A stretch of DNA of 64,000 nucleotides from Scyliorhinus canicula. Lineage: Eukaryota. The DNA lies in assembly GCF_902713615.1 (NCBI RefSeq), contig NC_052154.1, forward strand, positions 80,889,072 to 80,953,071, in the 5' to 3' direction. A model generated the notes under the pieces. The model was not told the DNA's origin and did not search any database. It saw only the letters and a list, made by a program, of their open reading frames with translations. Of the stretch, positions 3,586-28,344 are shown in pieces. Position 1 is the stretch's first letter, and each line of letters opens with the position of its first letter. The position numbers and the translations under genes are program-made.

Positions 3586-5070
3586 TCAGTGGGAGTCATT
3601 CAAGAATCAAATAGAGAAAGTACAGGGCCAATATGTTCCTGTAAAGGTAAAGGATGGGAACAAAACGGCCGGAGTACCCTGGATGTCAAGGGATATACAG
3701 GATTGCATAAGGAAACAAAAGGGTGGCTTATAGCAGATACAGGGTGATCAAACCAATGGATGCACTGAAGGAGTATGGGAAGTGGAGGGGGAAACTTAAA
3801 GGAATTAGGATAGCAAAGAGCGGGGCATGAAAGAACACTGGCAGACAAAATACAAGAAAATCTCAAGGTGGTTTGTAAGCATTCAATCAAGGCGTTCAAA
3901 AGGCAAACATGTGGACAGGATGGTATAGTGGGATACAGCACAACAAAGAGCTGAGGGTTTTGGCAAAGGTTGGTATCACGGCCGATACAGGCTTGGGGGG
4001 GGGGGGGGGGGGGGGGGTCGAAGAGCCTGTTCCCATGCTGTATTGTTCTTTGTTCTTTGTTTCTTGTTCTATATGAAGGGCAAGCTGGTAACAGGGCAAG
4101 GGAAGGGTTCATTAGGGACCCAAAGTGGCAATATATATGTGTAGCCGAAAGAGGTAGGTGAGGTATTATATAGTATATTGCATCTGTGTTCATTATGGTA
4201 AAGGATGATATTGGTATTAAAAGCATGAGAGGGATTGCGATATAATTGACTAGATTAGCTTTGGAAGGGAGGAGGTGGTAGCGGTTTTAGCGTGCCAAAA
4301 AGTGGACAGATCCCCAGGCCCAGATAAGATGTATCCTAAGCTGCTTTGTGAGGCAAGGGAGGAGATTTCAGGGTCTCTGAGGCTAATTTCCATACGCTCT
4401 CTGGCCTCAAGAGAGGTGCAAGAGGATTGGAGGGCAGCTAATGTGGTTCCATTATTCAAGAAGGGAATTAGGGGAAAAACTAGAGAAATACAGGCCATTA
4501 AGTTGAACTTTAGTGGTAGGGAAAGTAGTGGAAAAATGACAGATAGACAGCATTAATTATCACTTGGAGAGGCAAGGTTTAAAAAAGGTTAGTCGGCATG
4601 GCTTTGCCGGGGAACATGTCTGACACATCTGATGGTTGATGTACTCCATAAGGAGTCAGCAAGGCTTGTAAGATCTGCGGGAGGGGCGTTTTTTTTTGGG
4701 GGGTGGGGGCGGTGGACTGATCAAGAAAGTAAGAGCTGATGGGATCCAGAGAAATTATGAAGACTGGATCCAAAATTGGCTTTGTGGCCGGAGCCTGATA
4801 GCGATGGTCGAAGTTTGCTTTTGTGATTGGAAGCCTGTGTCTCGTGGCACACAGCAGATATTGGTGTTGGGTCCCTTGCTCTTTGTGGTGAACAGTAATA
4901 ATCTAGATGTGAACTTGGGAGGTATGACCAATAACTGCATGGATGACACGAACATTGGCGGTGCAATAAACAGCGATGAGAAAAGCTTTGGATTACAGCA
5001 CGAGAGAAATGGGCTGGCCAGATGGATAGAGAACTGGCAAATGGAATTTAAACCCGAAAAGTGCGAGGAA
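3586..5070 (+). mobile_element. Degraded CR1 LINE ORF2 fragment
   Basis: Frameshifted CR1 RT motifs DRSPGPDKMYPKLL...DWRAANVVPLFKKG and LGPLLFVV...DDT. Duplicate at about 11839-13312. Confidence 0.85.
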
Positions 5071-5326
5071 TGGGTGGTAGGTGGGGGAGACCCATACAGC
5101 TGGTGACACTCTGCAGAACCAGGACAGAAGGCGAAGCCTGACACAACCAAAGAGAGTGTGTTAGTCTGTTACTCTAGCTTAGTCTGGTATTGTCCCTTGT
5201 TGTCCCTGAAGACTTTGCGGAAGTTATACCTAGATTTCCTACATAGGTCAGGGTCACCTATCTTGAACGCCTCAGACCTGATCTTCAGTAGGGAGTGAAT
5301 CTTCCAGTCAAATCATGGTTTCCAGT

Positions 5327-6050
5327 TAGGGAACACATGTACTTCCGTCTTTGGCACGCAATCTTCTACACACTTACTGATCAGGTCTGTTGCGGTGGTG
5401 ACGTACTCATTTAGGTTGGCCTCCGAGTTCTTGAATATACACCAGTTCACTGACTCCAAGCAGTCAGATAAGATAACTTCCCATACAATAAGTTTCCTAA
5501 TGACTTATTTTAGTTTGCATGTAGTCACAGATGCTATTTGATAATTCACATCGCTGATTGTTTTTAGTAATGCGGTTGTGAGCTGTATTCACCAACCACT
5601 TAAATGTGTGCCCAGCAGCTATTCACATTCTGCTGTTAGTTACCACGTTCCAAAATTCTGACCCAGTAACGACCATGGAAGGGTGGTATTTTTCCAAGTC
5701 AGGATGATGTGTGACTTCAAGAAGAAACTTGAAGCGTTGCTTTTCCCATGGACCTGTTCTCATTGCCTATTTAAGTCGAATGAGTTGTGTCAATTTCTTG
5801 CAGACTTTCATTCTTCAAAACTGCAATAGTAAAGGACTAACCTTCTTAACCTCTACGTGCAAACTAAAACAAGTCATTAGGACACTTATTGTATGGGAAG
5901 TTAACTTATGTGACTGCTTGGAGTCAGTGAAATGATGTATATTCAAGAGCTCGGAGGCCAAGCTAAATGAGTATGTCACCACCACAACAGACCTCATCAG
6001 TAAGTGTGCAGAAGATTGCGTGCCAAAGACGGTAGTACATGCATTCCCTA
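5327..6050. repeat. 198-bp inverted repeat (arms 5327-5524 and 5853-6050) containing a Rex1/Babar-type LINE fragment
   Basis: The right arm is the reverse complement of the left at roughly 85-90% identity. Also present in copy B (13569-13766 / 14094-14291). Confidence 0.85.
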
Positions 6051-6139
6051 CTTAAACTCTCCTGATAAGAAAACCCTTCCATTCTGGGATCAACCGAGAG
6101 AACCTTCTATGGACTGCCTCCAGTGCCAGTGCCAGTGAG

Positions 6140-7291
6140 GTTTGCCGAAGAGCAGTGGGAGAGAGGCCATTTCTGGAGTGAGGCCACAGGGAGAGTGAGT
6201 TTTAAATGTGGGAATTTGAAGCAGAGCGGGGATTTGGTGATCAGGAAGAGATGCTCCTTGCTTTCTCTCCTTGATTTGTAACTTTTAAATCTTCAGGCAG
6301 TGGTCTTGCCCTGCTGCAGCAGGGACTGCAAGGTAATGGGCGAGATCGGTAAGTCTTTACAACTTTCATCAATTATAGTTTGAAATAGGTTTTGTGGTTG
6401 ATAATCTGTAATGGCTATAATTGCTACTGACGAAAACCAGCAAAGACGGGTCATAGATAATTGGATTTAATCTGATATCAAACATCTTCCAAAGCGTTCA
6501 TTTAAAAGGGTAAGTCACGGCAGGGGGACTCAACACCTTTGTTTGCTCCATGAGGGAGACTGAGAACATTTACAGTGCCCGGGGCCAGCGTGTGTGCAGG
6601 AAGTGTCTCCAGCTATAACTGCTGGAAGCCTGAGTTGCGGAGCTGAAGCGGCGGCTGGAGACACCGTGGAGCACCCGTGAGGTGGAGAGTATCGCGGATA
6701 ACACCTACAGAGAGGTGGTCACACCACAGGCTCAGACTCCACAGGCAGTAAAGGAATGGATTATCACCAGGCAGTGCAGGAGAGCTAGGCAGTCAGTGCC
6801 GGAATCTCCTATCGCAATTCCCCTGGAAGAGAAATATATTGTTTTGGATACTGTTGAGGGGAATGAGCTCCCAAGTGAAAGCAACAACTTCTAAATTCGT
6901 TGCACCACGTTTGGGTCTGCTGCAGAGAGAAGGAGTAAAAAGTGTGGTAATGCAATAGTTATAGGGGATTTGATTGGAAGGGGAACAGATAGTGGGTTTC
7001 TATGGCCGCAAATGACACCCCAGAAGGTATGGTGCCTCCCTGGTGGTCGGGTTAAAGATATCTTGGAGCGGTTACAGGACAGTCTGGATGGGGAGGGTGG
7101 ACAGCCAGCGGTCATGGTCGCATCGACACCAACAACATAGGTAAAAAAAATGAATGAGGTCCTGAAAACAGAATACAGGGTGTGAGGAAGAAAATTGAGA
7201 AGTCAGACCTTCAAAGTAGTAATCCCAGGATTACTACCAGTGCCAGGTGCTAGTCAGCGTTGAAATAGTAGGATATTTCAGATGAATATGT
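6140..7291 (+). mobile_element. CR1 5' part (ORF1 with zinc finger and SGNH-esterase remnant), truncated by the duplication junction
   Basis: CRKCLQL-like and AIVIGD motifs. In copy B (from about 14385) it continues into the ORF2 endonuclease up to about 17245. Confidence 0.75.
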
Positions 7292-7381
7292 TGCAAATGT
7301 CACCGTGATCTAAAGGTTAAAAGCGCATTACAAAGCATTTCACTGTACAGATATCGATCCATCATTGCTTAGTACTTGAGG

Positions 7382-7684
7382 TAATAATCTTTATTATTGT
7401 CACAAGTAGGTTTACATTAACACTGCAATGAAGGTACTGTGAATATCCCTAATCGCCACACTATGGCGCCTGTTCGGGTACACTGAGGGAGAATTCAGAA
7501 AGTCAAATTCACCTAACAAGTACGTCTTTTGGGACTTTTGGGAGGAAACTGGAGCACCCGGAGGAACCCAATGTAGGCACGACGAGAAGGTGCAGACTCC
7601 GCACGGACAGAACCCCAAGCGGGATCCAAGCGCAGGACGCTGGCACTGTGAAGCAACAGTGCTAAGCATTGTGCTACCATGCAT
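7382..7684 (-). mobile_element. V-SINE
   Basis: Reverse complement of the 1611-type SINE (tail at 7382, tRNA head at 7684). Confidence 0.85.
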
Positions 7685-7899
7685 CGAAGTGGAGTCAAAA
7701 TTCTGAAATCATTCAAGAGACAGTTAGAACCTGTAAGTGCAAATCATGTTTGTATACTGCAGAATAAGGATGGACAATGTGACCTTGCAGGTAAAGTTGC
7801 ATGTTGAAAAAGTTTAGCTTGATGTCTGTGTCCTAATTTTACTTCTGTTGTATAAAAAAAGCCTTACACAACAATAAAAGTAAAAGTTATTTAATTTTA

Positions 7900-8178
7900 T
7901 ACCATTCAGCCCATCTAATCTGCACCGCCCTCCAAAAGAGAACTGCCTCGCTCTATCCCCTTAAACCGCGCATTGATCATGGCCAAACCACATAACCTGC
8001 ACGTCCTCGGACACTAAGGGGCAATTTTAGCATAGCCAATACACCAAAACCTGCATATATTTGGGCTGTGAGAGGAAACCGGAGCTTATCGACACGGAGA
8101 GAACGTGATACTTCCACACAGCCAATTACCAATGCCGGCTCCCTGGCGCTATGAGTGCTGTGCTAACGATTGTGCCCA
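7900..8178 (-). mobile_element. Degraded V-SINE with CR1-derived tail
   Basis: aacctgcacgtcctcggac...gaggaaaccggagc core on the minus strand. Confidence 0.7.
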
Positions 8179-11100
8179 TAACTTGAACAATTTGTGTTAG
8201 AAAGCAGTTGTACGAGAACTTCAGATCTTAAGTCCTGGCTACGTCTACGTCAGGCTGATCTAGGGTAATCAGGCTTGTCTCCCGCCTGGTAACAGTCATG
8301 TTCAAAAATGTGTTGGGTTCGCCTCTAATAGCATGTTCGACAGCATCTTTCAAAAAAAATAAAGCATTCGAGTGGTTTATCGTGATTCGAATAGTTCAAT
8401 AATTTTGACAGGGAGAATCTCCTATATAAATATGTAGATTATGTGCAATAAGACGGATGCTAACCTGAATTTGAGCTGACTGCGTGTCAATACAAGTAAT
8501 GCGAGGGTGCATTTGCAGCGCATGGTAAATATGGTAAGAAAACTTTTCAATTTGCTAGAAGCGAAAGCATAGCTCGTAAACTAAAGCACTGTGAATGAAG
8601 ATCAATCTACAGGCCAAAAAATAGATACCCAGCGCATTTGGAGGCCAAACTGAAGATCACAGAATGTTCTTAAAGAGAGAAAGAGGAAAAATGAGATGGA
8701 TAGAAAAGGAAAACGCAAATAGAAACAGTAGTATAGTCTAAAATGCAGCAATCGTTTGATATTTCCTCCTTGCTTGGTGTGTTAGCAGATACCCTCTCCA
8801 ATTATTTATTCCTACTTAGGATACCACTAACAGTCAATAAGCCTGGAAATTGAGATCGACAACTTACATTTTGCTCTCGCTAGTTCAACAGTGGAGAATC
8901 AGATTGTAAGATCCACAACATAACCAATTGGTATTTTTCTTACAGGAACCTCGTATTAAATGTACAAGATATAAGTGGCACTGTATAACTCGCCATCTAA
9001 ACAGAATTACAACAGCCAAAGTGGCTTAAAAGTAAGATAACTTGATGTTCTGCATGGCTGAGTACTGCATCTTGGAGTCGATTTGCTCACTGGGCCACCA
9101 GCTACTGAGAGAAATATTTGAATTGTATGTTTTATCGCTTGGCTAAAAAGGATGATCTGGTGCAGATCGTCAGAGTATCAAGAGCTACCGTTCTCCTTCT
9201 TTAGGTGAAAACTTTAAAAGTTGAATACAAAAATGTCATAGGGATATAATGTGTCCCGGTAATTATCAGGGTGCGTCTGTGTTAAAGTTCCTGGGTTCTT
9301 CTGAAATAACGTTCAATTTAACATTTGTCTCCCAAACTGTTAGCAATTTGTACGAGGTTGCAGGTTTACTTGACTGTAACATAACATAATTCACATGCGT
9401 GTGCTTGTATCTAACTCTGCGGTTGCAAGCTCAATGTACAAACTTTTGTTTTTGTTTGAGCCGACAGGGGAGGTAACATTTTCTCTACTAGAAGTCTCTC
9501 TGCATCTCGGCTGCATAGGCAACCATCTTACAACTAGAAATAATGCAATGTCCATTGCTCCATTGTTTGTAAATTGTAGAACTGAAGTACTGGATAATAT
9601 GGAACCCAGCCTCTTTGTTCTCAAACTTAGAACTATGTTGAGAAAGGTACATTCGCCCGAACGTCAGAATCATAAGGTAGAAAACTCTCTGAAAGTGATT
9701 CGTGTGAAATCACGAGTTTGTGATGGGTTAAGACATAGATCTAGACAGAATGTATTATAAAACTTTTGTGTCTTACAAGACGACACTCCGTTCTCATTGA
9801 CATGTGTAACATTCTCAGAAAGCATGTATTGTTTTACTGGGCATGCGCCGTATCGTTACAGGCCAGCATTGTAGCACAGTGGGTAGCACTGTTGCTTCAC
9901 AGCGCCAGGGTGCCAGGTTAAATTCCCAGCTTTCCTCACTGTCTGTGCGGAGCCCGTTCGTTCTCCACGTGGCTGCATTGGTTTCCTCCTGGTGCTCCGG
10001 TCTCCTCCCAGAAGCCCAGAAAGACGTGCTTTTAGGTAATCTGGACATTCTGAATTCTCCCTTTGTGCACCTGAACAGGCGCCGGAATGTGGCGACGAGT
10101 GTCTTTTCACAGTAGCTTCATTGCAGTGTTAATGTAAGCCTACTTTTGGCTATAAAGATTATTATTATTTGGCGTTATGTCCATTTGTGCAGCCCAGACT
10201 TGCAGTAGGTTCTCATGTGTGAGTGTTGGGCAATATTTGAGGTTCTGTTCGTGAGCTCTAACGTTTTTATTGTCTCGAAAATGCAGGGTTTTCTTTAAAG
10301 AGAAAGTGCACTCTTCTAACTTATCAATTCCGTCTCAGTGTTATGCAGGCAAATAGCTTTACATTGACTGCTGCCTTCAATCACCATTTGAAACCAGGGG
10401 CTGGTTTAGCACACTGGGCTAAGTAGCTGGCTTATAATATAGAACAAAGCCGCAGCGTAGGTTCAATTCCTGTACCAGCATCCCTGAACAGGTGCCAGAC
10501 TTGGGGCTTTTCACAGTAACTTCATTAAAGCCTACTTGTGACAATAAGTGATTATTATTTATGTATGTTAAACTGTTGCCTATTATTATTATTCAATAAG
10601 TATTTTGTTTTGCATAAAATGCAGTGCTTGGACAGCATTGGAGTTAGCATTAGAAAAATTGTTGCATCGAAAGTCGATTGAAAACAATTTTTACCATTTG
10701 AACCTAAACTTTTGACATTTGAATAATGCACAATTTACAAATTGGTGCAATTATATCAATATTAAAACATTGCAGCACCTTACATTAAGGTAACTGCTAT
10801 GATTATAACCTATGTGTGCTAATATATGCCTGTAGATGAATAAACGAAACACCCGAAAATGTATTTAAGAAAACACTTCTGCACGTGGCGTAATATTGGA
10901 AAGTGAAAGATTAGAATCAATTCATGTGCTTTAAGGTGATCCTGCTGAATATTTCATTGTTAGTGAGAACAGCAAGTTCACAATGGGAAACATGTCGAAT
11001 ATCTGTTTAATTTCAACCTTATCTGTGTCTGCAATTGCATGGAACCATGAGCCCAATAACTATTGCTACACAACACTAGATACATTTAACTGTTGCAATC

Positions 11101-14100
11101 ATTAACAACTAAATTAAAATGAGCACTTCTACTGCTGCGGTGAGCAACTGAGCACGTTCTTTGTTTAGTTGTAGAAACTTGTGTCCTTATTTCACAACAC
11201 TTGCCAATATTACAAAACATAGGAGGGACTTTCGCTCATCGTTTCCTCATCGTTTTCACTGCGCTTTGGAACGTGTCATGATTAATTACCTAGAAATATA
11301 TAGAAACCACAGGTAATATACTTATTGATGTGGCAATGTTAAGTACAGAAATGTGTGTGCCTGTTATAACTGATATTTCGTTCTGTTGGTATTTACTACA
11401 ATACACTATCACAGATAGGGTAAAACTCGAGGCAGTTTAAGCACCTTACACGTGTAATGTCAGCTCACAAAAACAACATTTGGATGTGCTGCATGTAATT
11501 TTTACATCCAAGTATTATAGCTGAATGTTGTTCAAGATATCAATGCCACTTTTCTTCTTTCTTTATGCAGCTTCACCAGCATCTGAACATGTAACAGATG
11601 ATTATCAAAACAAAATTTGAATGCAGCATTAGAAAGAGAAAAAGACTGTTGTGAAATAGGTTGTGGTAAACAATTTCCAATTTCATAAGATTTAAATAAA
11701 ATGGAATCCACTTCTTTGATAAATTGAAAACAAAAGCGTTTATTACTCTTTTGTACTTAACTGAGTAATGAAAATTAATTCCATTGGATGATTACAATAT
11801 TGAGTCAGTTTCCATGCCTGTCCTTTAAAAAATCTACGTCAGTGGGAGTCATTCAAGAATCAAATAGAGAAAGTACAGGGCCAATATGTTCCTGTAAAGG
11901 TAAAGGATGGGAACAAAACGGCCGGAGTACCCTGGATGTCAAGGGATATACAGGATTGCATAAGGAAACAAAAGGGTGGCTTATAACAGATACAGGGTGA
12001 TCAAACCAATGGATGCACTGAAGGAGTATGGGAAGTGGAGGGGGAAACTTAAAGGAATTAGGATAGCAAAGAGCGGGGCATGAAAGAACACTGGCAGACA
12101 AAATACAAGAAAATCTCAAGGTGGTTTGTAAGCATTCAATCAAGGCGTTCAAAAGGCAAACATGTGGACAGGATTGTATAGTGGGATACAGCACAACAAA
12201 GAGCTGAGGGTTTTGGCAAAGGTTGGTATCACGGCCGATACAGGCTTGGGGGGGGGGGGGGGGGGCGGGTGTCGAAGAGCCTGTTCCCATGCTGTATTGT
12301 TCTTTGTTCTTTGTTTCTTGTTCTATATGAAGGGCAAGCTGGTAACAGGGCAAGGGAAGGGTTCATTAGGGACCCAAAGTGGCAATATATATGTGTAGCC
12401 GAAAGAGGTAGGTGAGGTATTATATAGTATATTGCATCTGTGTTCATTATGGTAAAGGATGATATTGGTATTAAAAGCATGAGAGGGATTGCGATATAAT
12501 TGACTAGATTAGCTTTGGAAGGGAGGAGGTGGTAGTGGTTTTAGCGTGCCAAAAAGTGGACAGATCCCCAGGCCCAGATAAGATGTATCCTAAGCTGCTT
12601 TGTGAGGCAAGGGAGGAGATTTCAGGGTCTCTGAGGCTAATTTCCATATGCTCTCTGGCCTCAAGAGAGGTGCAAGAGGATTGGAGGGCAGCTAATGTGG
12701 TACCATTATTCAAGAAGGGAATTAGGGGAAAAACTAGAGAAATACAGGCCATTAAGTTGAACTTTAGTGGTAGGGAAAGTAGTGGAAAAATGACAGATAG
12801 ACAGCATTAATTATCACTTGGAGAGGCAAGGTTTAAAAAAGGTTAGTCGGCATGGCTTTGCCGGGGAACATGTCTGACACATCTGATGGTTGATGTACTC
12901 CATAAGGAGTCAGCAAGGCTTGTAAGATCTGCGGGAGGGGCGTTTTTTTTTGGGGGGAGGGCGGTGGACTGATCAAGAAAGTAAGAGCTGATGGGATCCA
13001 GAGAAATTATGAAGACTGGATCCAAAATTGGCTTTGTGGCCGGAGCCTGATAGCGATGGTCGAAGTGATTGGAAGCCTGTGTCTAGTGGCGCACAGCAGA
13101 TATTGGTGTTGGGTCCCTTGCTCTTTGTGGTGTACAGTAATAATCTAGATGTGAACTTGGGAGGTATGACCAATAACTGCATGGATGACACGAACATTGG
13201 CGGTGCAATAAACAGCGATGAGAAAAGCTTTGGATTACAACACGAGAGAAATGGGCTGGCCAGATGGATAGAGAACTGGCAAATGGAATTTAAACCCGAA
13301 AAGTGTGAGGAATGGGTGGTAGGTGGGGGAGACCCATACAGCTGGTGACACTCTGCAGAACCAGGACAGAAGGCGAAGCCTGACACAACCAAAGAGAGTG
13401 TGTTAGTCTGTTACTCTAGCTTAGTCTGGTATTGTCCCTTGTTGTCCCTGAAGACTTTGCGGAAGTTATACCTAGATTTCCTACATAGGTCAGGGTCACC
13501 TATCTTGAACACCTCAGACCTGATCTTCAGTAGGGAGTGAATCTTCCAGTCAAATCATGGTTTCCAGTTAGGGAATACATGTACTTCCATCTTTGACACG
13601 CAATCTTCTACACACTTACTGATCAGGTCTGTTGCGGTGGTGACGTACTCATTTAGGTTGGCCTCCGAGTTCTTGAATATACACCAGTTCACTGACTCCA
13701 AGCAGTCACATAAGATAACTTCCCATACAATAAGTTTCCTAATGACTTATTTTAGTTTGCATGTAGTCACAGATGCTATTTAATATTCACATCGCTGATT
13801 GTTTTTAATAATGTGGTTGTGAGCTGTATTCACCAACCACTTAAATGTGTGCCCAGCAGCTATTCACATTCTGCTGCTAGTTACCACGTTCCAAAATTTT
13901 GACCCAGTAACGGCCATGGAAGGGTGGTATTTTTCCAAGTCAGGATGATGTGTGACTTCAAGAAGAAACTTGAAGCGTTGATTTTCCCATGGACCTGTTC
14001 TCGTTGCCTATTTAAGTCGAATGAGTTGTGTCAATTTCTTGCAGACTTTCATTCTTCAAAACTGCAATAGTAAAGGACTAACCTTCTTAACCTCTACGTG

Positions 14101-16819
14101 CAAACTAAAACAAGTCATTAGGACACTTACTGTATGGGAAGTTAACTTATGTGACTGCTTGGAGTCAGTGAAATGATGTATATTCAAGAGCTCGGAGGCC
14201 AAGCTAAATGAGTATGTCACCACCACAACAGACCTCATCAGTAAGTGTGCAGAAGATTGCGTGCCAAAGACGGTAGTACATGCATTCCCTACTTAAACTC
14301 TCCTGATAAGAAAACCCTTCCATTCTGGGATCAACCGAGAGAACCTTCTATGGACTGCCTCCAGTGCCAGTGCCAGTGAGGTTTGCCGAAGAGCAGTGGG
14401 AGAGAGGCCATCTCTGGAGTGAGGCCACAGGGAGAGTGAGTTTTAAATGTGGGAATTTGAAGCAGAGTGGGGATTTGGTGATCAGGAAGAGATGCTCCTT
14501 GCTTTCTCTCCTTGATTTGTAACTTTTAAATCTTCAGGCAGTGGTCTTGCCCTGCTGCAGCAGGGACTGCAAGGTAATGGGCGAGATCGGTAAGTCTTTA
14601 CAACTTTCATCAATTATAGTTTGAAATAGGTTTTGTGGTTGGTAATCTGTAATGGCTATAATTGCTACTGACGAAAACCAGCAAAGACGGGTCATAGATA
14701 ATTGGATTTAATCTGATATCAAACATCTTCCAAAGCGTTCATTTAAAAGGGTAAGTCACGGCAGGGGGACTCAACACCTTTGTTTGCTCCATGAGGGAGA
14801 CTGAGAACATTTACAGTGCCTGGGGCCAGCGTGTGTGCAGGAAGTGTCTCCAGCTATAACTGCTGGAAGCCTGAGTTGCGGAGCTGAAGCGGCGGCTGGA
14901 GACACCGTGGAGCACCCGTGAGGTGGAGAGTATCGCGGATAACACCTACAGAGAGGTGGTCACACCACAGGCTCAGACTCCACAGGCAGGAAAGGAATGG
15001 ATTATCACCAGGCAGTGCAGGAGAGCTAGGCAGTCAGTGCCGGAATCTCCTATCGCAATTCCCCTGGAAGAGAAATATATTGTTTTGGATACTGTTGAGG
15101 GGAATGAGCTCCCAAGTGAAAGCAACAACTTCTAAATTCGTTGCACCACGGTTGGGTCTGCTGCAGAGAGAAGGAGTAAAAAGTGTGGTAATGCAATAGT
15201 TATAGGGGATTTGATTGGAAGGGGAACAGATAGTGGGTTTCTATGGCCGCAAATGACACTCCAGAAGGTATGGTGCCTCCCTGGTGGTCGGGTTAAAGAT
15301 ATCTTGGAGCGGTTACAGGACAGTCTGGATGGGGAGAGTGGACAGCCAGCGGTCATGGTCGCATCGACACCAACAACATAGGGAAAAAAAATGAATGAGG
15401 TCCTGAAAACAGAATACAGGGTGTGAGGAAGAAAATTGAGAAGTCAGACCTTCAAAGTAGTAATCCCAGGATTACTACCAGTGCTAGGTGCTAGTCAGCG
15501 TTGAAATAGTAGGATATTTCAGATGAATATGTGGTTGAAGAAATGGTGTGTGTGTGGGGGTGGGGGGGTGGGGGGAGATTTCAGATTCCTGGGTCTTTGG
15601 AACTGGTTCTGGGGAAGGTGGGACCTCCTCTGCAAACTGGGCAGGACCGGGACTTATACCCTTGGGGACAGGGCGTGGGCTGGTACTTGCTGGAGCGATT
15701 GAAGAGTATTAAATGAACATGGCAGGGGAAGATAACTTCTGTAATGATTTAGAGCAGGGACAATCAAGAACAAAAGAAAAGACAGAAATGAGAATAAGAA
15801 AAGTGATTGGCAGAGAAGTCAAAGGCCTGTATCAGATAATGACACTGTAAAAGAATTGGAGGGACGGTACAAGGAATTGTAAAATTACTAGCCTTAAGGT
15901 TTTGTACCTGAACGCATGGAGTATTCAAAATAAAATGGATGAGTTACTTGTGCAGATCAATTTCAAGGGATATCATATCGTTAGAATAACGGAGAGATCT
16001 CTCGTGACCAAGGATGGGAAGATTGAGGACTACAGTTTTTAGGAGATCAGGCAGAAAAGAAAAGCTGGAGGAGGAGTTACATTGTTGATTAAAGAAGATA
16101 TGGATACAATATTGAGGGAAGATATTGTGATGTTCTCTGTTGGGTCTATCAGGATGCTTTGAGAACGTAGTGCTAACAAAGAACGTCAATCTGAGTTATT
16201 GAACAAAGCTGATTTATTTACATCACTAAATTAAAGATTCTAGCTCGTCAACAAGCAATAAGTTCGGAAATAAAACAATACAAAATCTCTTCCAACAGAA
16301 CTCGATGCTATGCACCTAATCTCTCTACCGCCTTACAACCTTCTCCCAGCATCCCGGGAGTCACATGATATTGATACGGTTGCTCCTTTTCTACATCTGG
16401 TGGTGAGAAGTATTATTATCTTATTGTTAACACTTTGCATTCCTTACAATACACATTTTATTACAATATTTGTAGAGATGATGTGGAATCTGTCTGGATC
16501 GAGTTAAGAAACATCAAGTGGCAAACAACATTCGCAGGGGTGGTGTACCAACCACGAGAACGCAGTGGTAATGTTGGGAAAAGCATAGATAGGAAATCAG
16601 AAATGCATGTGATAACAGAACATCTGTGAATATGGGTGACTTCATTCTGCATATAGATTGGGTGACTCAAATTAATCACAGTACAATAAAGGAGGAATTT
16701 CTGCACTGTATACGGGATTTACTGGACCAGTATGTTGAGGAACCAAAAAGGGAACAGGCCATCTTGGACTGTGTGTTGTGCAATCAGAACGGATTAGTTA
16801 GCAACCTATTTCTGAAAGA

Positions 16820-17995: not shown

Positions 17996-18452
17996 ATGTC
18001 AATTAACCCATCAATTGGTTGAGCCGCAAGGGCCACATCCGGCTCCCTCTTGAACAACAAACTGGCCCCAACAGCTTTCTGTGGCAGAGAATTCCACAAG
18101 TTCACAAGTTTTTGAGAAACGATGTTCTTCCTCATCTCAGCCCTGAATGTCTCACCTCTTATTCTAAGGCTGTGACCCCCTAGTTCTTTTCCATCATCGG
18201 GGATCTTCTTGCAGCATCTGGCCTATCCAGTTCCACCAGGATCTTATATGTTAACATGAGATCCCCTCTCATTCTTTTAAACTCCAATGAATACAAGCCC
18301 AGTCGCTCGGGTTTTTCTCTATATGTCAGTCCTGCATTCCTGGCAATTAGTCTGGTGAACTGGTGGACTGATAGAAATGAGGCTATGACAGGTGAGGACC
18401 TTGAGAGGATTGTTATAACTAAGGAGGTAGTGATGGGCAAGCTAATGGGGCT

Positions 18453-19404
18453 TGTAGCCATGCTGGCCACGCAAAATGGACACTGAGCCAAACTAAAATG
18501 GAAGGCTGCTGGGAAACAGACAGTTCAGCCAGAACAGCAGTCTGCAAAGAGCAGTTTGCATTCTGCAGCAGCAGAAACCAGTTTGGGCTCAGGTAAAGAG
18601 ACCTTAGCTAGGTGCAAATGGCAAAACGCTTTGCATGCTAATGAGGCCATCAGACTTGAACACCCACACAATAGATACATTTGGTTCTGAATGGACACAT
18701 TCCAATCAAGACCCAGACATCGAGGCACCAGAAACCTCCGAACAAAAGGACATAAGAAACGCCCCCTCCATCACGGAGACCCCCTCGCATTGGGGAATTA
18801 ATCCAGTATCGATAAGAAATTGATCCAATAGGTAGAGCCCGCCCGAGAAGAGGGAAGGACAACGGAACCCCTATAAAAGATAGGGACCTCGTGTTGTCCG
18901 GTCTGTTAAACCTGTGCTCCGGCCTCGACTGACACCTGGTATCCTGACTCCAGCCGTTGAGCACCAGCCGCCGAAACCGTAAGTTCAACGCTCGCTACGC
19001 GATCCAAGCCCGCTAGACTCCCAAGTGCCAGAACGCTTGCTGAAGGCTGCAGACAAAACCAGGACGAAGGCCTCGTTCTCTGACCTTGCCTGTTCCTGTT
19101 AGATAAGTATTCTGTTTGCTTATGTTTAGTTGTAGCTTAGTCTCTTAGTGTGTGTGCATGAGTATTTATTATTAACTGTATAATAAATATTGATCGTTTG
19201 AACTTGACTAATCGGTGTATCGTCTTTATTACTTTGAATTTGACCTTGGAATACTTGTGACGTTGCCTATACGGCAGCTGGCGACTCCAGAGCTTAAATA
19301 ATTACATAGAACAGAGCCTAGCAGTGTTAAGCACACGTCGAACTCGGAGGCGTGTTAATACACTCCAATAAACGCGTTTTACGCCCATAGTAAAACGTGC
19401 AACA
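18453..19404 (+). repeat. 5' LTR (952 bp)
   Basis: tgtagcca...gtgcaaca. TATAAAA at 18872-18878, AATAAA at 19182 and 19367. Constant 8,856-bp offset to the 3' LTR; no difference seen by eye. Confidence 0.97.
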
Positions 19405-19409
19405 TTTAG

Positions 19410-19427
19410 TGGCGACTCTGATGGGAT
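19410..19427 (+). promoter_or_regulatory. Primer-binding site, tRNA-Ser(GCU)-like
   Basis: TGGCGACTCTGATGGGAT, 5 nt after the LTR. It matches 15/18 to the complement of the vertebrate tRNA-Ser(GCU) 3' end as I recall it (TGGCGACGAGGATGGGAT). Confidence 0.7.
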
Positions 19428-19723: not shown

Positions 19724-21471
19724 ATGGCCATGCAGGCAATGGAACGTCTGATGGATCCAGCAAAGTTTGTGGTCGCAGCGACCAGCAGCAGTAGCAGAGT
19801 AGGCCAGTGTCCCACGTGGGAGCTGGAACTCCGCAAATATCTGCAGGGAAAGGGATGGCCCCTTTGGAAAGAGTTTTGTGCAAATGAGGAGACAGGTCCC
19901 GGAAGTATAGGTCATACTTGGTGGGAGAACCTCTCTCAGATACACAAAAAGAGTTTAAGTAAAGCACGCAAGCCGATGGCGATTGTGTCCTGCTTGGCAC
20001 AGTTGCGAGGCGCAGAGGAGGTCATCAGGACGCTCCGGGCAGATTTAGAGGAAAGGAACCGAATGAGTAAGGTCGATGTCAGGGACATCGAGAAAGAAAA
20101 CCTGGATCTTAAAGGGAAGTTGGCAGAGAAGGGTAGAGAGGTGGATGATGCCCAGAGGGCTCACCAGTCTTGTCTAGCTCATCTGAACAGTTCCCAGACC
20201 CAGTATGAGAAAGCCTATCAGGACGTGCAACGTGCCGTTCTGATAAGACAGGAATCGGAGAAGCAGGTGGAGGCATTGCAGAGGCAATGCTCCGATCTCA
20301 AAGCAGCTTTGAGAGCACTCCACGCTGCAACGACCGAACAAAGACAAAGCACAGTTGACCACGCGAAATGCAGAAAACAGATTGCGGAACTGCAATCTCT
20401 GCTTTCGGTGCAGAATGGCTTCCAAAGCACCTTTGGAGCTCAGTTAGATGGGGAAAACGCCCCAGATTGGCAGGAATTAAGCGAGACAGCGCAGCGTTAT
20501 GTTCAGGGAACATGTGCGCCCGCAGCTCAGCAGAAACGACAGGCACCCCAACCCCCCACAGCTCAGATCATAACCGCACCCATGAATCCCGTAACCACAC
20601 AGAGGAAAGCCGAATCAGAAGGCGCCCAGACATAACTTACACCACCCCTTTAACAGTAACCCAGCTAAGGGACGCTTGTGAAAAGATCACTCCGTTCCTC
20701 CCCACCGCAGACCCCCACCAGTTCTTTGCTAAGGTAAAGCAGCAGGCTACCATGTACGGCCTGGATGAGAGAGAGCAGGTTAAGCTCACCGTGTTGAGCT
20801 TAGACCAGAGTGTAGTGGCAGCCCTCCCCGACCCACAGAACGTGGCAGGAGGCAGCCTAGAGGAGATGCACACTGCTATTTTAGATGCCATCGGGTACAA
20901 TAGAGGTGACCCCGTAGAAGGCTTGAATAAGTGCAGGCAGAAGAGATCTGAACACCCCACAGCATTCGCCGGAAGGCTGTGGATTCACTTCAGCGCAGTT
21001 TTCGGACAGCTAGATAGAGCGCATTTAACCCGCGAAAACATGGTTAAGTGGACGCGCACAATTATCTCACACGCAACAGAAGCAGGACAGAGCGCTTGCA
21101 ATAATTACGACCCCTCAGAAGAGGCCCATAACGAAAAATGGGTCCTCAAAAGATTGTCCCGCGCTTGGGAGCAATCGCTTCAGGCAAAAGCAAAGGTTAG
21201 ATCCCCAGAAGAGGCTCAGGCTGCTGCAGATATCCAAGCAGTCAGAGAGCACCAGAAGCCCGCATGGGTAAATGAAGGCAAGAGCAGCCCTCAACAGAAA
21301 GGACAGGAATGCTATAACTGTGGACAGTTAGGGCATTGGGCAAAAGAGTGTAATGCACCCCAGCGATCTCAGAGAGGCCAGCAGACAGGCACTCTGAACC
21401 GCAACAAAGCAAAACCCATCCACAATGTAGTAGTACAGTCAGGACCCACCAATGTGGACGAGACGAACTGA
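19724..21471 (+). CDS. gag: Gag (about 582 aa if one C is restored at 20625-20627): N-terminal domain, long coiled coil, capsid, one CCHC knuckle
   Basis: ORFs 19724-20635 and 20368-21471 join as ...ESEGA(P)DITYTT... CYNCGQLGHWAKEC at 21310-21351. Confidence 0.88.
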
Positions 21472-24400
21472 CGGTGTTCGGGCTCCCCCACTTGGGTCTG
21501 TGACACACTATGGGACTCATCAGGGAGGCCCGTAGTCACGGCAAAAGTCAAAGGGAAGCCCATAGAGTTATTGTGGGACACAGGAGGATCCCGCACCACC
21601 ATTAACTCCACAACCACGGCACACGCAGACACGTGGCCGACCACCTCCACCATCACACTTAGCGGGTTCACCGGACACTCGCAGCAGGGACATATCACAG
21701 CACCCGTAGCGATCCAGCTAGGGAACATTAGCACAAGGCACCCCGTAGTTTTAGTAAATCTTCCCCGGACAGCAGAGCACATCCTGGGGATAGATTTTAT
21801 GAACACACACAGCTTGTCGTTCGACCCAGTGAACCAGTGTGTCTGGCGAATGGCGAGATCAGACAGAGCACCAGCCACCCTCACAGTAGGAGACTACGCT
21901 AATCGGATTAGCGCAGTGGGAGAGTACTCATTCGACCTGACTACACTCCACACCGACAGACAAATTAAGGCCCTACTAAACAAACACAGGACAGCATTTG
22001 CAAGTCACCGTCATGACTGTGGCAGAATGACTGGACAAGTTCATGTTACCGGACAGGACCCCCGACCGCAAAAGCAGTATAGATTTCCCCTCGAGGCAGA
22101 GGTGGAAATAGAAAAGGTTATAGGCAGCTTGTTGGACCAAGGTGTACTGAGAACGGTAGCCTCCACCAACAATGCCCCTATTTGGCCAGTGAGGAAGCCC
22201 GATGGATCATGGCGTCTGACCATCGATTATCGGGAACTCAACAAAGTAACCCCCGCAGTAGCCCCAACGGTAGCTACTAGTCCCGAGACCATGCTCAAGC
22301 AGGGTCTCAACGCCAAGTACTTCACGGTATTGGACATCAGTAATGGATTCTGGTCAATACCATTGGCAAAAGCGTGCCAATACAAATTCGCATTCACTTT
22401 TAAAACGCAGCAGTACACGTGGACATGCCTCCCACAAGGATTCCACAATTCACCCTCCATTTTCCACCGACAGCTGGCAAGTGGATTAGAAAAATTTTCC
22501 CGACCCGATTGTCTGGTACAGTATGTAGACGACCTACTACTGCAGACAGACACAAAGGCAGAGCACATTTCGCTTCTGGCCGAACTCCTGGAACTCTTAA
22601 CTGAAATTGGCTGTAAAGTTAACCCGAAAAAGGCCCAAATATTGGAAAGTAAAGTGATGTATTTGGGATCAGTCATCACGCACGGCAAACGCGAGATCGA
22701 ATTCAAAAGAATTGATTCGATTGTCAAATTGCCCCTTCCCCAGAATGTATCAGCCCTCCGGTCGTTTTTAGGACTGGTTGGCTATTGTCGGAACCACATC
22801 GACGGATTCGCGACAAAAGCCGCCCCACTTTCAGACCTCCTTAAGAAAGGAGCCCCCTGGGAATGGCTTCCGCAGCATACAGGCGCTGTGGAAGAGTTGA
22901 AACGAGCCCTTAGTGCAGCACCCGCGCTGCTAGTCCCCGACCAACTTTCACCGTACGCAATAGAGGTAGCGAGCACCGATCTGACCCTCTCGGCCGTGTT
23001 GCTTCAGGAACGGCACGAGCAGCTAAGACCAGTGGCTTATGCCTCCCGACTGTTAGACCCAGTAGAACAAGGATTTTCGGCCTGTGAGAGGCACCTCCTT
23101 GCTGTCTTCTGGGCAGTACAGTACTTTTCCTACATAACCGGACTAAACCCCATCACCATTCTAACCGAACACACACCCACACAGCTACTACTAGACGGTC
23201 GACTGAAGGACGGTTCAGTTAGCCAGATTAGGGCAGCTAGGTGGACCCTACTTTTACAAGGACGGGACATTACAGTAAAACGGACACGCACCCACACATA
23301 CTTAGCAGACAACCTCCAATACCCCGGACAGCCCCATGACTGTGAAATTGTAGCTCCCCTGCATAACACAGGACCCTTTTTAGCCAAAACACCCCCCAGG
23401 AAGATAGGGAACCCGAAACAAAGCCCCCAGCCCACAGACACGTGTGGACCCTTGAGGATTTATGTAGACGGTTCCTCCACAGTTTTAAATGGTGAGCGTA
23501 TCACAGGATGCGGCATCTATGTAGAGGACGCGCAGGGGCGCGCTCTCGAAGAAATCGCTCTTAAGTTACCAGGTCACTTAGGCGCGCAGGCAGCAGAGCT
23601 AGCAGCCATAGCGTACATAGTGGACCACCCCGATTCTTTCCCCAGCCCAGCAGACATATATTCAGACAGCTTATATGTCTGTAACAGTTTAACAGATTTC
23701 CTGCCCCTGTGGAGGACACGAGGTTTTGTCTCCGCAGACGGAAAACCCCTTCCATCAGCCCCCTTACTCCAGCATATTTTAGCGAAAGCGAAGGACAGGA
23801 CCTTCGGCATAATAAAAGTAAGAAGCCACCATAGGTCATCACCCCCTGGGAATGTAAAGGCCGACGCGTTGGCTAAGGCAGGTTCCAGGAGAGGACACTT
23901 ATGGACCCCCCCAGCTAGCGCACCAGCTAGCGCCCCTGTGAGCGCAGTCCAAGTCTCACAGACTGATATTAAAGATCTCGTGGCAGCACAAAAACAGGAC
24001 GGAGACCTCAGGGAGGTTTTCAAGGGAAACTTTGTGCCTGCTTACGAGCACTTTAAACACGCACTGACCACACATGAGGGTGTGATCATTAAGGACCGAC
24101 TTTATGTGGTCCCACAGCAGGACAGGAACCAGATGATTGCCTTGTTCCATGACGGACACGGGCATCAGGGAATTGATGCAACAACGAGGCACCTCAGGCA
24201 ACTCTGTTGGTGGCCTAATCTCAGGAATGATGTAACGCACTACATAGAGAATTGCCTGATTTGTGCTCAGAATAACCCGGACAGGTATTCTAAGAAGGCA
24301 CAACTTCGGCATACTCGCCCAGTTGACGGCCCTTGGACAAACCTCCAGATCGACTTTATAGGTCCATTGCCCCCTTGTCGGAATGGCTATAAATACGTTC

Positions 24401-25697
24401 TGGTGGTGATAGATACCTTTACCAAGTGGGTAGAGGCATTTCCCTCACGAACAAATACAGCAAAGACAGCTGCAAAGATCCTGACCCACCACATCTTCAC
24501 GAGATGGGGTTACCCCGAAGTATCGATTCGGACCAGGGATCTCACTTTACAGGACGGGTCATGAGGAACGTCCTGACAATATTCGGAATCAAACAGAACT
24601 TCCACATTGCGTATCATCCACAGTCCAGCGGGATTGTGGAGCGCATGAATCGGACCCTAAAAACTACCCTTAGGAAAATGGTTCAAGAGAACAATTCCAC
24701 ATGGGATTCAGTGCTCCCCTTTGCACTTATGTTCATAAGGAACACTGTCTCCACATCGACAGGATACACACCACACACACTCATGACCGGACGCCCTATG
24801 AAAGGTACAGAATTCCTTTTAGGACTGGACATGACAAGCCCCGAAGTGACGGCCCTCACACATGAAAAGGCAGTTAAAGAACTAGTTGAGACTGTGAGGT
24901 CTGCACAGCTCGCAGCCGCAGTCCAGCTAGGGAAACGCCGACAGCAACGTACTGCCTGTTTCAATAAGACCGTCCACACCACAGAATTCCAGGTTGGGCA
25001 ACAGGTAATGTTATCTGTTTATAACCCCAGCAGTTTTTTGGCTCCAAAATATTCCGGTCCCTACTCAATTTCGGACAAAATTAGCCCCTCCGTGTACAGA
25101 ATAAAGTATCCTAATGGAAAGACCGCGTGGTTCCATATAAACCAGTTAAAGGCATATGGAACACAGGCCAACCATGCTCACCATGTCCTGCTGGATGCAG
25201 CAGAACACTTCACCCCGCCCACCAGAGACACTTTTCCACCATCCCCCTCACAGACCAGTTCATCCACGGACTCGCCCACGACTCCGCCCACAGACCACTA
25301 CAGACCACACCCCGAGACGCCCACAAGCTGCCACAGCAGAGACAGTAGGACAGACACTGACTCTGAAGACAGCGACACCACACAGCCATACAGCCCACAC
25401 TGCACCAACTACGACCCCGACTCCAGTGACCCCATGGAACTCACTTACCTCAAAAACCCCGAACCACCACCCGACCCCGACTACCCCGACAACACACTCG
25501 ACGCTACACAATGGCACAGGGACAATTCCTACAGACTTGTCCGCAATGACGAAAGTGACCCCCGGTCACACAACTCCAAAATAGCATGCCTGATCCACAC
25601 AAGGGTGTGGGATCCGGGAGAGCAGGACGACGCAATGTCTGACTCCCGACACGGCAACCCCTTTGTGACCCTGTTCACAGAGGCAGAATCAAAGTGA
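21472..25697 (+). CDS. pol: Pol (about 1,408 aa if one G is restored at 24506-24509): protease, RT, tether, RNase H, integrase with a long C-terminal extension
   Basis: DTG at 21577, YVDD at 22522, degenerate RNase H at about 22950-23300, second RNase H YVDGS...AAELAA...YSDS...GNVKAD at about 23450-23890, HHCC, D-D-E, GPY motif. In frame with gag after a single TGA. Confidence 0.93.
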
Positions 25698-26632
25698 GGT
25701 GTCCAGATGATGTAAGATAGGAATCGTTTGAGGGAAACGATGTCCTTTCTGATGGAACCTGCACGTATGTTTGTCTTCGTTTTATGTTTGTTTGTTTCAG
25801 GAATGTACATTGTTCAGCTGGAGGATGGACATCTTCTTTTCAGCTGACAAGATTGTGACCACCTCACATACACGTTAGTTTGTCCGCAGATACTTCTGAG
25901 AACTTCGGTTTGATTGGAGATCTTTTCCAAAGTTGTAAGGCCACACGCCAAATAGCTTGTCCGCAGATATCTCTGAGAACTTCAGGGATGTCCTCAGTTG
26001 GAGCATCTTGGCTCCCTTGGTTTTTTAGGTGCCCCTCTATTCGGCGAAATAGAGGCTGCAGGTCATGGTAAACACATTCGTACCCGTTTCTTTCCAGGTT
26101 ACTCAGGCAGTGGACAAACGGCACTGAGGACCCGCCCTGTCTGAGAACCAACCCTTGGTCAGCCAAGCTCGGGTATGGCACAGCACGCCCTACCCGGGGA
26201 TCCCATCCAACTCATACCCGTAGCGGCCCATACGCAACTCATTCGGACGTTTCTTTCCAAATTTTGTTTTCATTTTACGTTAGGTAGCCCTTCGGCCGCC
26301 ATCCCACATGCTATTTACATCCGGGAACATTCGGATGGTAAATCAGCAAAGCCTGCGAGACGGCTCGCAGAAGGAAGGATTGTTAGGTGTATGCTGGTCT
26401 TTAAATTCGCTTTTTGAAAAAAAATGAGGGGAGTCACAGGGTGTGACTTAGCCAGTCATTTTTAAGGGTCAATTGGGTTTTGAAAGACAGATGCACTAAC
26501 AAGTAAAGGTCTTAAACTGTGTATTGACAGATACTGTGCTTGATCCCAAAGGTTTCAAAGGACGAGACAGAGGTCGAAGCCAGGATTGTCAATACCGGAG
26601 GAAGAAGGAAGAGAAAGAAGAAGAACAGCAAA

Positions 26633-26986
26633 ATGATGGAAGCCCACTTATTACTATTTAATGTCATATGTATATGTGTGGAAACAAGACACGTTTCCCC
26701 CACAACCCCCACCGTAAATGTTAGTACAACAAACCCCCAGTGCTCAGCTCTGATCAGCGAGGTTCAGACCTGGTGTACTAAATTCATGACGTGGTACTCC
26801 ATGTCCTACATAATCGAATCACTGTTGGTGATTGCGATCCTCACCATCCTAGTGCAGACCCTCAGGTTGAGGAAATGGAAGAGGAGAGCCTCTCGTTCCA
26901 GCACCTCACCCATCTATAGAGTGCAATCCCCCATCTTCGGATTCCACCAAACCCCTCAACCCCTCACTGATTACAACACTCTGTAA
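26633..26986 (+). CDS. Small type-I transmembrane protein (117 aa) in the env position; FAST-fusogen-like architecture
   Basis: ATG with A at -3. Signal-like MMEAHLLLFNVICICVET, T/P-rich stalk with NVS sequon, C-x10-C, TM YIIESLLVIAILTILVQTL, RLRKWKRR, C-terminal YNTL. Confidence 0.75.
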   Translation: MMEAHLLLFNVICICVETRHVSPTTPTVNVSTTNPQCSALISEVQTWCTKFMTWYSMSYIIESLLVIAILTILVQTLRLRKWKRRASRSSTSPIYRVQSPIFGFHQTPQPLTDYNTL

Positions 26987-27298: not shown

Positions 27299-27308
27299 AA
27301 GGAGGGAA
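27299..27308 (+). promoter_or_regulatory. Polypurine tract
   Basis: aaggagggaa directly before the 3' LTR TG. Confidence 0.85.
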
Positions 27309-28260
27309 TGTAGCCATGCTGGCCACGCAAAATGGACACTGAGCCAAACTAAAATGGAAGGCTGCTGGGAAACAGACAGTTCAGCCAGAACAGCAGTCTG
27401 CAAAGAGCAGTTTGCATTCTGCAGCAGCAGAAACCAGTTTGGGCTCAGGTAAAGAGACCTTAGCTAGGTGCAAATGGCAAAACGCTTTGCATGCTAATGA
27501 GGCCATCAGACTTGAACACCCACACAATAGATACATTTGGTTCTGAATGGACACATTCCAATCAAGACCCAGACATCGAGGCACCAGAAACCTCCGAACA
27601 AAAGGACATAAGAAACGCCCCCTCCATCACGGAGACCCCCTCGCATTGGGGAATTAATCCAGTATCGATAAGAAATTGATCCAATAGGTAGAGCCCGCCC
27701 GAGAAGAGGGAAGGACAACGGAACCCCTATAAAAGATAGGGACCTCGTGTTGTCCGGTCTGTTAAACCTGTGCTCCGGCCTCGACTGACACCTGGTATCC
27801 TGACTCCAGCCGTTGAGCACCAGCCGCCGAAACCGTAAGTTCAACGCTCGCTACGCGATCCAAGCCCGCTAGACTCCCAAGTGCCAGAACGCTTGCTGAA
27901 GGCTGCAGACAAAACCAGGACGAAGGCCTCGTTCTCTGACCTTGCCTGTTCCTGTTAGATAAGTATTCTGTTTGCTTATGTTTAGTTGTAGCTTAGTCTC
28001 TTAGTGTGTGTGCATGAGTATTTATTATTAACTGTATAATAAATATTGATCGTTTGAACTTGACTAATCGGTGTATCGTCTTTATTACTTTGAATTTGAC
28101 CTTGGAATACTTGTGACGTTGCCTATACGGCAGCTGGCGACTCCAGAGCTTAAATAATTACATAGAACAGAGCCTAGCAGTGTTAAGCACACGTCGAACT
28201 CGGAGGCGTGTTAATACACTCCAATAAACGCGTTTTACGCCCATAGTAAAACGTGCAACA
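27309..28260 (+). repeat. 3' LTR (952 bp)
   Basis: Same sequence as the 5' LTR, followed by TSD ggct. Confidence 0.97.
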
Positions 28261-28344
28261 GGCTAAAGGTAGACAAGACTCCTACCCTGATGGAATGCAT
28301 CCCAGAGTGCTAAAAGAGATGGCAAGGAAATTGCAGATGCACTA

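Follow-up and report, generated by a model that had tools for sequence, protein, structure and literature searches.

FAST fusogens typically enter the membrane by type III insertion without a cleaved signal peptide, and their ectodomain is not known to be glycosylated. The reovirus members (p10, p13, p14 and p15) are described as proteins of ~100-200 aa with a tiny ectodomain, one transmembrane (TM) helix, a polybasic motif and a hydrophobic tail patch, features that recur in the catshark protein analyzed here, with the small ectodomain as a prediction; the FAST-like open reading frames (ORFs) of pistolviruses, nackednaviruses and megriviruses show the same resemblances (PMC12945298, PMC7830690). 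A preliminary description of the catshark locus had mentioned FAST-like small ORFs in env-less LTR elements of insects, and this precedent is real: according to Voichek et al., sORF2 serves soma-to-oocyte transfer of such elements, and of 22 lepidopteran elements 7 have it downstream of pol (bioRxiv 10.1101/2025.03.14.642691). Their screen covered arthropod Metaviridae and selected ORFs of 60-210 aa with a single TM segment, at least 3 K/R within 15 residues after it and an ectodomain of 10-50 aa in N-out/C-in orientation; FAST-like ORFs are also reported from nackednaviruses and bird picornaviruses, and the available portion of the text names none from vertebrate endogenous retroviruses (ERVs) (bioRxiv 10.1101/2025.03.14.642691).

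The retroviruses closest to the catshark element among those known are snakehead retrovirus (SnRV) and ERVs of the SnRV clade: CmiERV lineage I, OVEX1 and elements of frogs and coelacanth. In SnRV, Gag is described as non-myristoylated, with a coiled coil and a single zinc knuckle, and pol as following in frame past a suppressed gag stop (PMC2717909). The Gag traits and the in-frame pol are common to the catshark element; in contrast, SnRV has env and four accessory ORFs (PMC12193657), and the catshark element has no env. The 873-aa ORF3 of OVEX1 (PMC2717909) is unlike the small ORF described below. An env-less SnRV-like frog transcript is also on record, with no small ORF described in the available part of that source (PMC4131045).

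The locus under study lies in a 64-kb stretch of the Scyliorhinus canicula genome (hereafter, the window), and its features are collected in Table 1. It is a 9808-nt (9.8-kb) LTR element whose two 952-nt LTRs are 100% identical, inserted into what we take, from its motifs, to be a CR1-like LINE. The pro-pol region encodes protease, reverse transcriptase (RT), tether, RNase H, integrase and an SH3-like domain. In this reference copy gag is broken across two frames (19724-20635 and 20368-21471), and so is the integrase. Gag is a single 582-aa frame in three of three other copies looked at, and many other copies have an open pol of 1408-1411 aa. The primer-binding site is presumably tRNA-Arg-like, and SnRV reportedly uses tRNA-Arg as primer; the complement of the primer-binding pattern has 7 genomic matches, and tRNA-Arg was called in none of the three looked at. 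A start resembling that of the primer-binding site recurs within the U5 region of the LTR (19277-19290) in most copies looked at. Elsewhere in the window, positions 1-16500 form a tandem duplication of ~8.25 kb with 97-99% identity, which is either recent or an assembly artefact, and a LINE that looks L1/Tx1-like by eye occupies 57532-62903 (ORF1, 58832-59836; endonuclease/RT ORF2, 60468-62903), its ORFs being preceded by GC-rich tandem arrays at 57600-58530.

Table 1. Features of the reference element and of its small-ORF protein. Nucleotide positions are those of the window; residues are those of the protein.
Feature	Position	Strand	Remarks
Left target-site duplication copy	18449..18452	+	4 nt
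5' LTR	18453..19404	+	952 nt, TG...CA
TATA-like site	18872	+	in 5' LTR
Donor-like splice sites	18977 and 19433	+	in 5' LTR and after primer-binding site, respectively
Primer-binding site	19410..19427	+	
gag	19724..21471	+	no MG start, coiled-coil-like N-terminal region, one CCHC knuckle
pro-pol	21472..25697	+	in frame past gag stop
Conserved non-coding block	26074..26450	+	candidate cis-acting RNA element
Candidate splice acceptor	26500..26551	+	AG ends at 26551
GA-rich leader ahead of ATG	26590..26632	+	in all subfamilies
Small ORF	26633..26986	+	117 aa
Polypurine tract	27299..27308	+	
3' LTR	27309..28260	+	same sequence as 5' LTR
Right target-site duplication copy	28261..28264	+	
Signal-like N-terminus	residues 1-19		small-ORF protein
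S/T/P stalk with N29 sequon	includes residue 29		small-ORF protein
Aromatic segment (W-C-x-x-F-x-x-W)	W47-Y59		contains invariant C48
TM helix	residues ~60-77		contains invariant E62
Polybasic run	residues 78-88		
Hydrophobic tail patch	residues 94-106		

The preliminary description had pointed to an intact ORF exactly where env should be, and translation of 26633-26986 confirmed it, with a product of 117 aa. The ORF starts 935 nt past the pol stop (25697) and ends 322 nt short of the 3' LTR (27309). No env-length ORF is present between pol and the LTR: the longest other ATG ORF, upstream of the small ORF at 26175, has 80 aa and is not retained across subfamilies. When the post-pol region was shuffled 2000 times, an ATG ORF of at least 100 aa arose in 111 shuffles, and in none of the 2000 did such an ORF contain a TM stretch followed by at least 3 K/R. 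Ahead of the small ORF, the block at 26074-26450 is 76-86% identical to older groups, above the small ORF's own conservation between subfamilies. The block keeps no ORF across subfamilies, Rfam gave no match anywhere in the element, and folding z-scores of the post-pol region are weak (the best of 16 folding windows, -2.56, lies at 26300-26449). We consider it a candidate for an element acting in export or packaging.

Among the 56 rows of an RT tree, the element falls inside a retroviral clade of 41 rows (support 100/98). Classification as a Gypsy element was rejected, as gypsy rows lie outside that clade. The RT is 48% identical to the SnRV-matching row (P0025) and 38-41% to gamma/epsilon, ERV-L-like and loki-type rows, with some unnamed fish rows reaching 43-48%. 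By eye, its motifs match the SnRV row in the available supplement of PMC7947760. The best matches of P0025 in the genome belong to the element's own family (14 of 14 fetched, RT 94-97% identical to that of the element). Pol itself comes closest to NYNRIN-like models from frogs and coelacanth (45-51%), with further relatives in turtle and other sharks, and the best solved-structure matches are foamy virus Pol and MLV RT. Judged by these comparisons, the element classifies as a SnRV-related member of Retroviridae; the wording is 'SnRV-related' because no tree node joins it to SnRV itself. In the frog model P0003 (Pyxicephalus), the C-terminal 140 aa past the integrase contain a signal-like stretch and then, by eye, an Ig-V-like sequence; a captured gene with an Ig domain may lie downstream of pol in this relative.

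A lokiretroviral identity was also considered. The lokiretroviruses of Wang and Han have in common with the element a tether plus RNase H, an LTR-gag-pol layout and a NYNRIN-like label (PMC7947760); tether and RNase H are present in the element's pol and are, however, common to all retroviruses. The identity was rejected, as loki RT motifs differ in the supplement of that paper and loki-type rows, whose RT is placed as sister to Retroviridae, fall outside the element's clade. In addition, the lokiretroviral env is described as paramyxovirus-F-like and is absent from the catshark element, and the accessible text reports no lokiretroviruses in 6 chondrichthyan genomes (PMC7947760). A genome-wide search with PF00523 came back blank and is uninformative on an F-like env. 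ERV-Spuma.0-Sca, present in the small-spotted catshark, shares the host genus and an undetected env domain with our element, but is another family: it is described as 9220 nt long, with an 866-nt LTR that has another start, a 2259-nt gag and a 1326-nt 'env' CDS, and it groups with fish foamy-like ERVs (PMC10699275). No published description of the family or of the small ORF was found, in a search that left most subscription journals and Repbase outside.

Other copies of the family were then compared. One set of 34 loci was selected by pol (20 of the 35 matches of a pol search and 14 of the 34 scored in the P0025 search) and is biased to young copies. The small ORF follows pol in 32 of them and is open from ATG to stop in 27; its absence from the other two is due to truncation or deletion. 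None of the 34 contains env, and no ATG ORF above 142 aa is found within 1.9 kb past pol. Among 20 loci selected by the small ORF, pol lies upstream in 16, gag without pol is present between paired LTRs in two, and two are fragments. Identity between paired LTRs is 99.9-100% in the youngest subfamily and 93-98% in older ones. The same order persists in one far older copy (integrase end 56%, small ORF 44%), and the copies covered extend to the divergence of L148. At least 150 genomic matches at 98-100% to the 117-aa protein were listed (from 5337 first-look candidates), a figure that is a floor and not a copy number; the youngest subfamily is nearly invariant. Homologues occupy the same position across related subfamilies, and none of the copies sampled points to env having been deleted recently. 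The proposed replacement holds for the family as a whole: the small ORF has replaced env in this large, recently active, SnRV-related catshark ERV family. Absence of env is treated here as a secondary loss.

Derivative arrangements were also seen. Two pol-less elements with LTR pairs at 96% (L074:40-5878 and L076:9-6151) retain gag and the small ORF, and probably represent non-autonomous subfamilies. L140:1-9814 is an LTR-sharing tandem whose second unit is gag-less and mostly pol-less, and retains the small ORF.

Selection was examined in 43 distinct intact natural copies from five subfamilies, 44-100% identical to the 117-aa protein, broken copies having been excluded beforehand. Nei-Gojobori dN/dS of the small ORF is 0.20-0.46 in all 15 subfamily pairings, compared with 0.65-4.65 in other frames, and bootstrap upper bounds are 0.34-0.62 in eight of eight pairs. 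Differences among copies are biased to third positions. Purifying selection, which the preliminary description had proposed to look for, is therefore found across subfamilies. It is tightest in the W47-L77 block (0.06-0.20) and loose in the signal and stalk (0.15-0.91); for RT, the eight comparable pairs give 0.05-0.23. Start, topology and length (109-118 aa) are stable across subfamilies, and no other ORF between pol and the LTR is retained across them. Because of its position in 32 of 34 loci, the lack of env, the dN/dS values and the conserved splice acceptor described below, we regard the small ORF as a gene and not debris, and are close to certain that it is a real, functional one. Between the reference and older subfamilies dS is 1.15-1.33 in the small ORF and 0.48-0.76 in RT, about a twofold gap, hinting at recombination in the 3' region or at constrained synonymous sites in pol.

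In 38 of 43 copies, a candidate acceptor motif precedes the ATG by no more than 130 nt (66-81 nt in six examples). At this candidate acceptor, two chimeric RefSeq models pass into the frame of the genomic ORF. On this layout, the small ORF would be read from a spliced subgenomic RNA, as env is, and the GA-rich leader may be splice-enhancer-like. No donor-acceptor joint of the element was present in contigs from four runs guessed to be RNA; all 30 bins were covered, and level and strand are not shown by contigs. Host gene models P0064 (XP_072365112.1) and P0061-P0063 splice into the small-ORF exon of the ERV. One isoform in S. torazame, HEPACAM2-like, has the TM and basic tail of the small ORF as its C-terminus, which may reflect exaptation or a prediction artefact.

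Hydropathy bears out much of the protein architecture first proposed: a signal-like N-terminus (a short hydrophobic stretch, 9-residue peak 2.8), a single TM segment (one 19-residue stretch of TM strength, peak 2.2 near residue 59), the N29 sequon and a basic run directly after the TM. The N-terminus is signal-like in all subfamilies, with clear A-x-A-type cleavage sites in the older ones, and from both features we infer a signal peptide; the ectodomain would be ~40 aa if it is cleaved, and 59 aa if not. The sequon and the positive-inside rule point to an N-out/C-in topology. We are thus fairly confident that the product is a surface type I glycoprotein. The AlphaFold model of one natural copy (pTM 0.30) shows helices without a fold; the aromatic segment, TM and basic run form one continuous helix, with disorder elsewhere. 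A homodimer prediction (score 0.01) gave no answer on dimerization.

Residues invariant in 43 of 43 copies are M1, N29, W47, C48, F51, W54, S56, Y59, E62, L65, A68, R78, K81, W82 and R85, so that constraint concentrates on the membrane-proximal, TM and juxtamembrane residues. The sequon is kept in 42 of 43 copies, all 43 have at least 5 K/R after the TM, and nine positions of the tail patch Y95-P110 are conserved in 41-42. S/T/P residues make up 48-61% of the stalk. For comparison with the amphipathic or hydrophobic motifs in the ecto- and endodomains of FAST and sORF2 proteins, hydrophobic moments are 0.29-0.47 in the aromatic segment of the ectodomain, which is moderately amphipathic, and 0.19-0.43 in the tail. 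Given an S/T/P-rich stalk and an aromatic segment of only moderate amphipathicity, there is no clear fusion-peptide motif.

Other elements of the first description proved specific to subfamilies. A candidate cystine loop (C37/C48) like that of p10, in which a conserved cysteine pair surrounds a hydrophobic patch, is present in this copy; however, the C-x10-C pattern is found in only 20 of 43 copies, and is absent from three older subfamilies. Likewise, the tail of this copy does end in YNTL, but a YxxL terminus occurs in 9 of 43. A myristoylation start (MGxxxS/T) is found in 0 of 43. These counts, together with a predicted glycosylated stalk unlike FAST ectodomains, tell against the earlier label of FAST-like protein. 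FAST proteins are described as combining N-myristoylation or a cystine-noose fusion peptide with palmitoylated cysteines (PMC12945298, PMC7830690), whereas the catshark protein has no conserved loop or myristate site; at least p14 is a type III protein (PMC12945298), in contrast with the signal-like N-terminus and glycosylated S/T/P stalk proposed here. The sORF2 of the Drosophila MDG1 group (412, Mdg1, Stalker) is likewise a single-pass protein with a short ectodomain and a polybasic run, encoded by an env-less element. However, sORF2 proteins belong to insect Metaviridae, are mostly N-myristoylated, have 63-107 aa, are usually encoded upstream of gag, and have no signal peptide mentioned in the available text, whereas the catshark protein belongs to vertebrate Retroviridae, has a putative signal peptide, an N-glycan site and its own candidate splice acceptor, and shows no sequence similarity to them. 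The small ORF fits the size, single-TM and polybasic features of the insect screen, would fit its ectodomain length if the signal peptide is cleaved, and fails on myristoylation, and for this reason was not filed as FAST or sORF2; a TM followed by a polybasic run is generic for single-pass proteins. Taken at sequence level, the product is not a member of either family, and appears to be a new, env-replacing type I mini-glycoprotein. It may nonetheless work like FAST or sORF2.

Searches for relatives led back to the same genus. A single-sequence word search with the small-ORF protein found none, and a profile search of proteins of 62-251 aa gave nothing beyond Scyliorhinus. The full HMMER search yielded five matches, namely four true Scyliorhinus gene models, which end in diverged versions of the small ORF and led to the older subfamilies, and one repetitive false match (P0065). 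S. canicula and S. torazame were the only species in which relatives turned up, a range to be read knowing that small ORFs are rarely annotated and that other vertebrate genomes lay outside the search. Viral contigs contained no Pol relative, and the two loci that came up in a metagenome scan each matched a short motif by chance. The small-ORF profile had 0 matches in a PDB sequence search, nothing reached E<=0.001 when viral models were searched by fold, and neither sequence nor fold connected the protein with FAST proteins or Env. The nearest feature look-alikes (TMIE, TMEM213, glycophorin and influenza M2; scores 0.82-0.88) are ordinary single-pass proteins, and leads only. An origin from TMEM156 (PF15106) was considered and is not supported: 11 of 15 members match the juxtamembrane/TM block only (best E 8.7e-4), no TMEM156 host gene was found in the genome, and the single genomic match, under the cut-off, is another copy of the small ORF.

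What the protein does admits more than one explanation. Contact-dependent transfer is, in our estimate, the likeliest single function, with a probability of roughly 0.4. It is ranked first because of the ORF's occupation of env's place with env's splicing logic, the constraint on membrane residues and the insect precedent of soma-to-oocyte transfer; the two pol-less derivatives that keep gag and the small ORF also speak for it. Against it stand the FAST motifs that are absent or unconserved, a glycosylated stalk that does not look like a fusion peptide, the ordinary single-pass look-alikes and a Gag without late motifs in three of three copies. According to this proposal, the small ORF would yield a type I glycoprotein that loses its signal peptide by cleavage; once mature, it would have an ectodomain of ~40 residues made of a glycosylated S/T/P stalk and an aromatic membrane-proximal helix, one TM, and a tail that is basic and then hydrophobic. 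At the membrane, the tail would collect capsids of the non-myristoylated Gag; local membrane merger or protrusions would be the work of the aromatic segment together with the TM and polybasic run; and capsids would move to an adjoining cell, for instance from somatic gonad to germ cells. The least certain step is that the protein acts at cell contacts as a minimal Env substitute. Any likeness to reovirus FAST and Drosophila sORF2 would be convergent, not homologous. A stronger version, in which a member of Retroviridae swapped Env for an independently evolved mini-fusogen with a novel architecture (cleaved signal peptide, glycosylated stalk, aromatic membrane-proximal helix) and re-invaded the catshark germ line repeatedly by cell-to-cell transfer, the first case in a vertebrate retrovirus, is rather unlikely. 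Copy number does not inform on transfer, since env-less ERVs are reported to multiply readily without a transfer protein (bioRxiv 10.1101/2021.11.23.469661, PMC4131045).

An unlikely reading, second in rank, is that the element retrotransposes within the cell and the protein is an accessory glycoprotein that modulates the host, comparable to Vpu, adenovirus E3 or the small glycoproteins of herpesviruses. Its TM, with the invariant Glu and an invariant Cys available for dimerization, would bind a host membrane protein, and thereby blunt immune recognition or restriction, or favor survival of cells that carry the element. A predicted cleaved signal, a predicted glycosylated mucin-like stalk and a polar TM residue speak for such a protein, and the weak Pfam likenesses, all under cut-off, are to adenovirus E3A, K1, glycoprotein J and TMEM156. 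Furthermore, SnRV is described as having 3' ORFs of 52, 94, 76 and 205 residues expressed from spliced RNAs (PMC12193657), so the small ORF may be of the accessory kind and have persisted after env was lost. However, the protein libraries revealed no homology between it and the accessory proteins of SnRV, there is no conserved ITAM, ITIM or YxxPhi motif (YxxPhi is present in 10 of 43 copies, nine of them with the YNTL of the window), and an element confined to germ cells would presumably gain little from immune evasion.

Less probable still is a role within the producer cell, as an anchor or viroporin-like oligomer that recruits Gag to ER/Golgi or vesicles and is needed for retrotransposition or vesicle export, without being a fusogen. 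IAP, which buds into the ER, and rhabdovirus viroporins with an aromatic ectodomain and a basic tail offer comparisons. None of 15 copies has a Gag with an MG start, and the late motifs PPxY, PT/SAP and YPxL were absent from Gag in the three copies in which they were sought; the structure model of the Gag capsid was unusable (pLDDT 45). Binding of Gag could fall to the conserved basic run and to the hydrophobic patch in the tail, and retention of the small ORF in gag-only derivatives, together with the weak feature likeness to influenza M2, fits this role as well. Against it, many env-less ERVs do without such a membrane anchor, and the conservation of a stalk predicted to be glycosylated points to a task in the lumen or at the surface. 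Moreover, env-bearing SnRV is reported to have a non-myristoylated Gag too (PMC2717909).

The protein might also be a collapsed env, in which a large internal deletion fused the signal peptide to the membrane-proximal, TM and tail part, leaving a residual task such as Gag anchoring. This explanation concerns origin and is compatible with the other functions. Position, splicing logic and topology are those of env, and the aromatic stretch next to the membrane looks like the last part of a TM subunit. Nevertheless, we hold it improbable, as the protein has no furin site, heptad repeat or CX6CC and no Pfam match to TLV_coat or fusion proteins, and no longer ORF exists among the 34 loci. The same genome does contain env-bearing ERVs (78 TLV_coat matches), but they belong to other RT lineages, with RT 32-43% identical to that of the reference element (12 loci with RT in range, of 20 fetched), and the 43-copy profile found no match in six-frame translations of the 20 loci (best E 0.58). 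Several epsilon-like lineages with open env frames of 563-570 aa are seen among these ERVs (L108-L126).

Finally, a neutral or incidental ORF, carried along by a burst of young copies or overlapping a cis-acting RNA element, is very improbable and already largely refuted by dN/dS (~0.2-0.4 at dS >1, with third-position bias and no such signal in other frames) and by retention of start, length and topology while neighboring ORFs come and go, even if the dN/dS set is made up of intact copies, the near-invariance of the youngest subfamily proves nothing alone, and an SnRV 3' ORF product is described as largely dispensable while its RNA mattered (PMC12193657).

ERVs without env are usually taken as cell-bound retrotransposons, and a selected surface-type protein in env's place breaks that rule whatever its function. 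If transfer of capsids is true, the strategy of insect sORF2 would extend to vertebrate Retroviridae with a new architecture of small fusogen; if the product is instead an accessory or assembly factor, it would represent an undescribed family of retroviral proteins. The existence of such genes suggests that screens requiring env or N-myristoylation are likely to miss them in the ERVs of fish and amphibians. As a young, abundant family of a laboratory shark, it lends itself to direct tests of expression site and activity.
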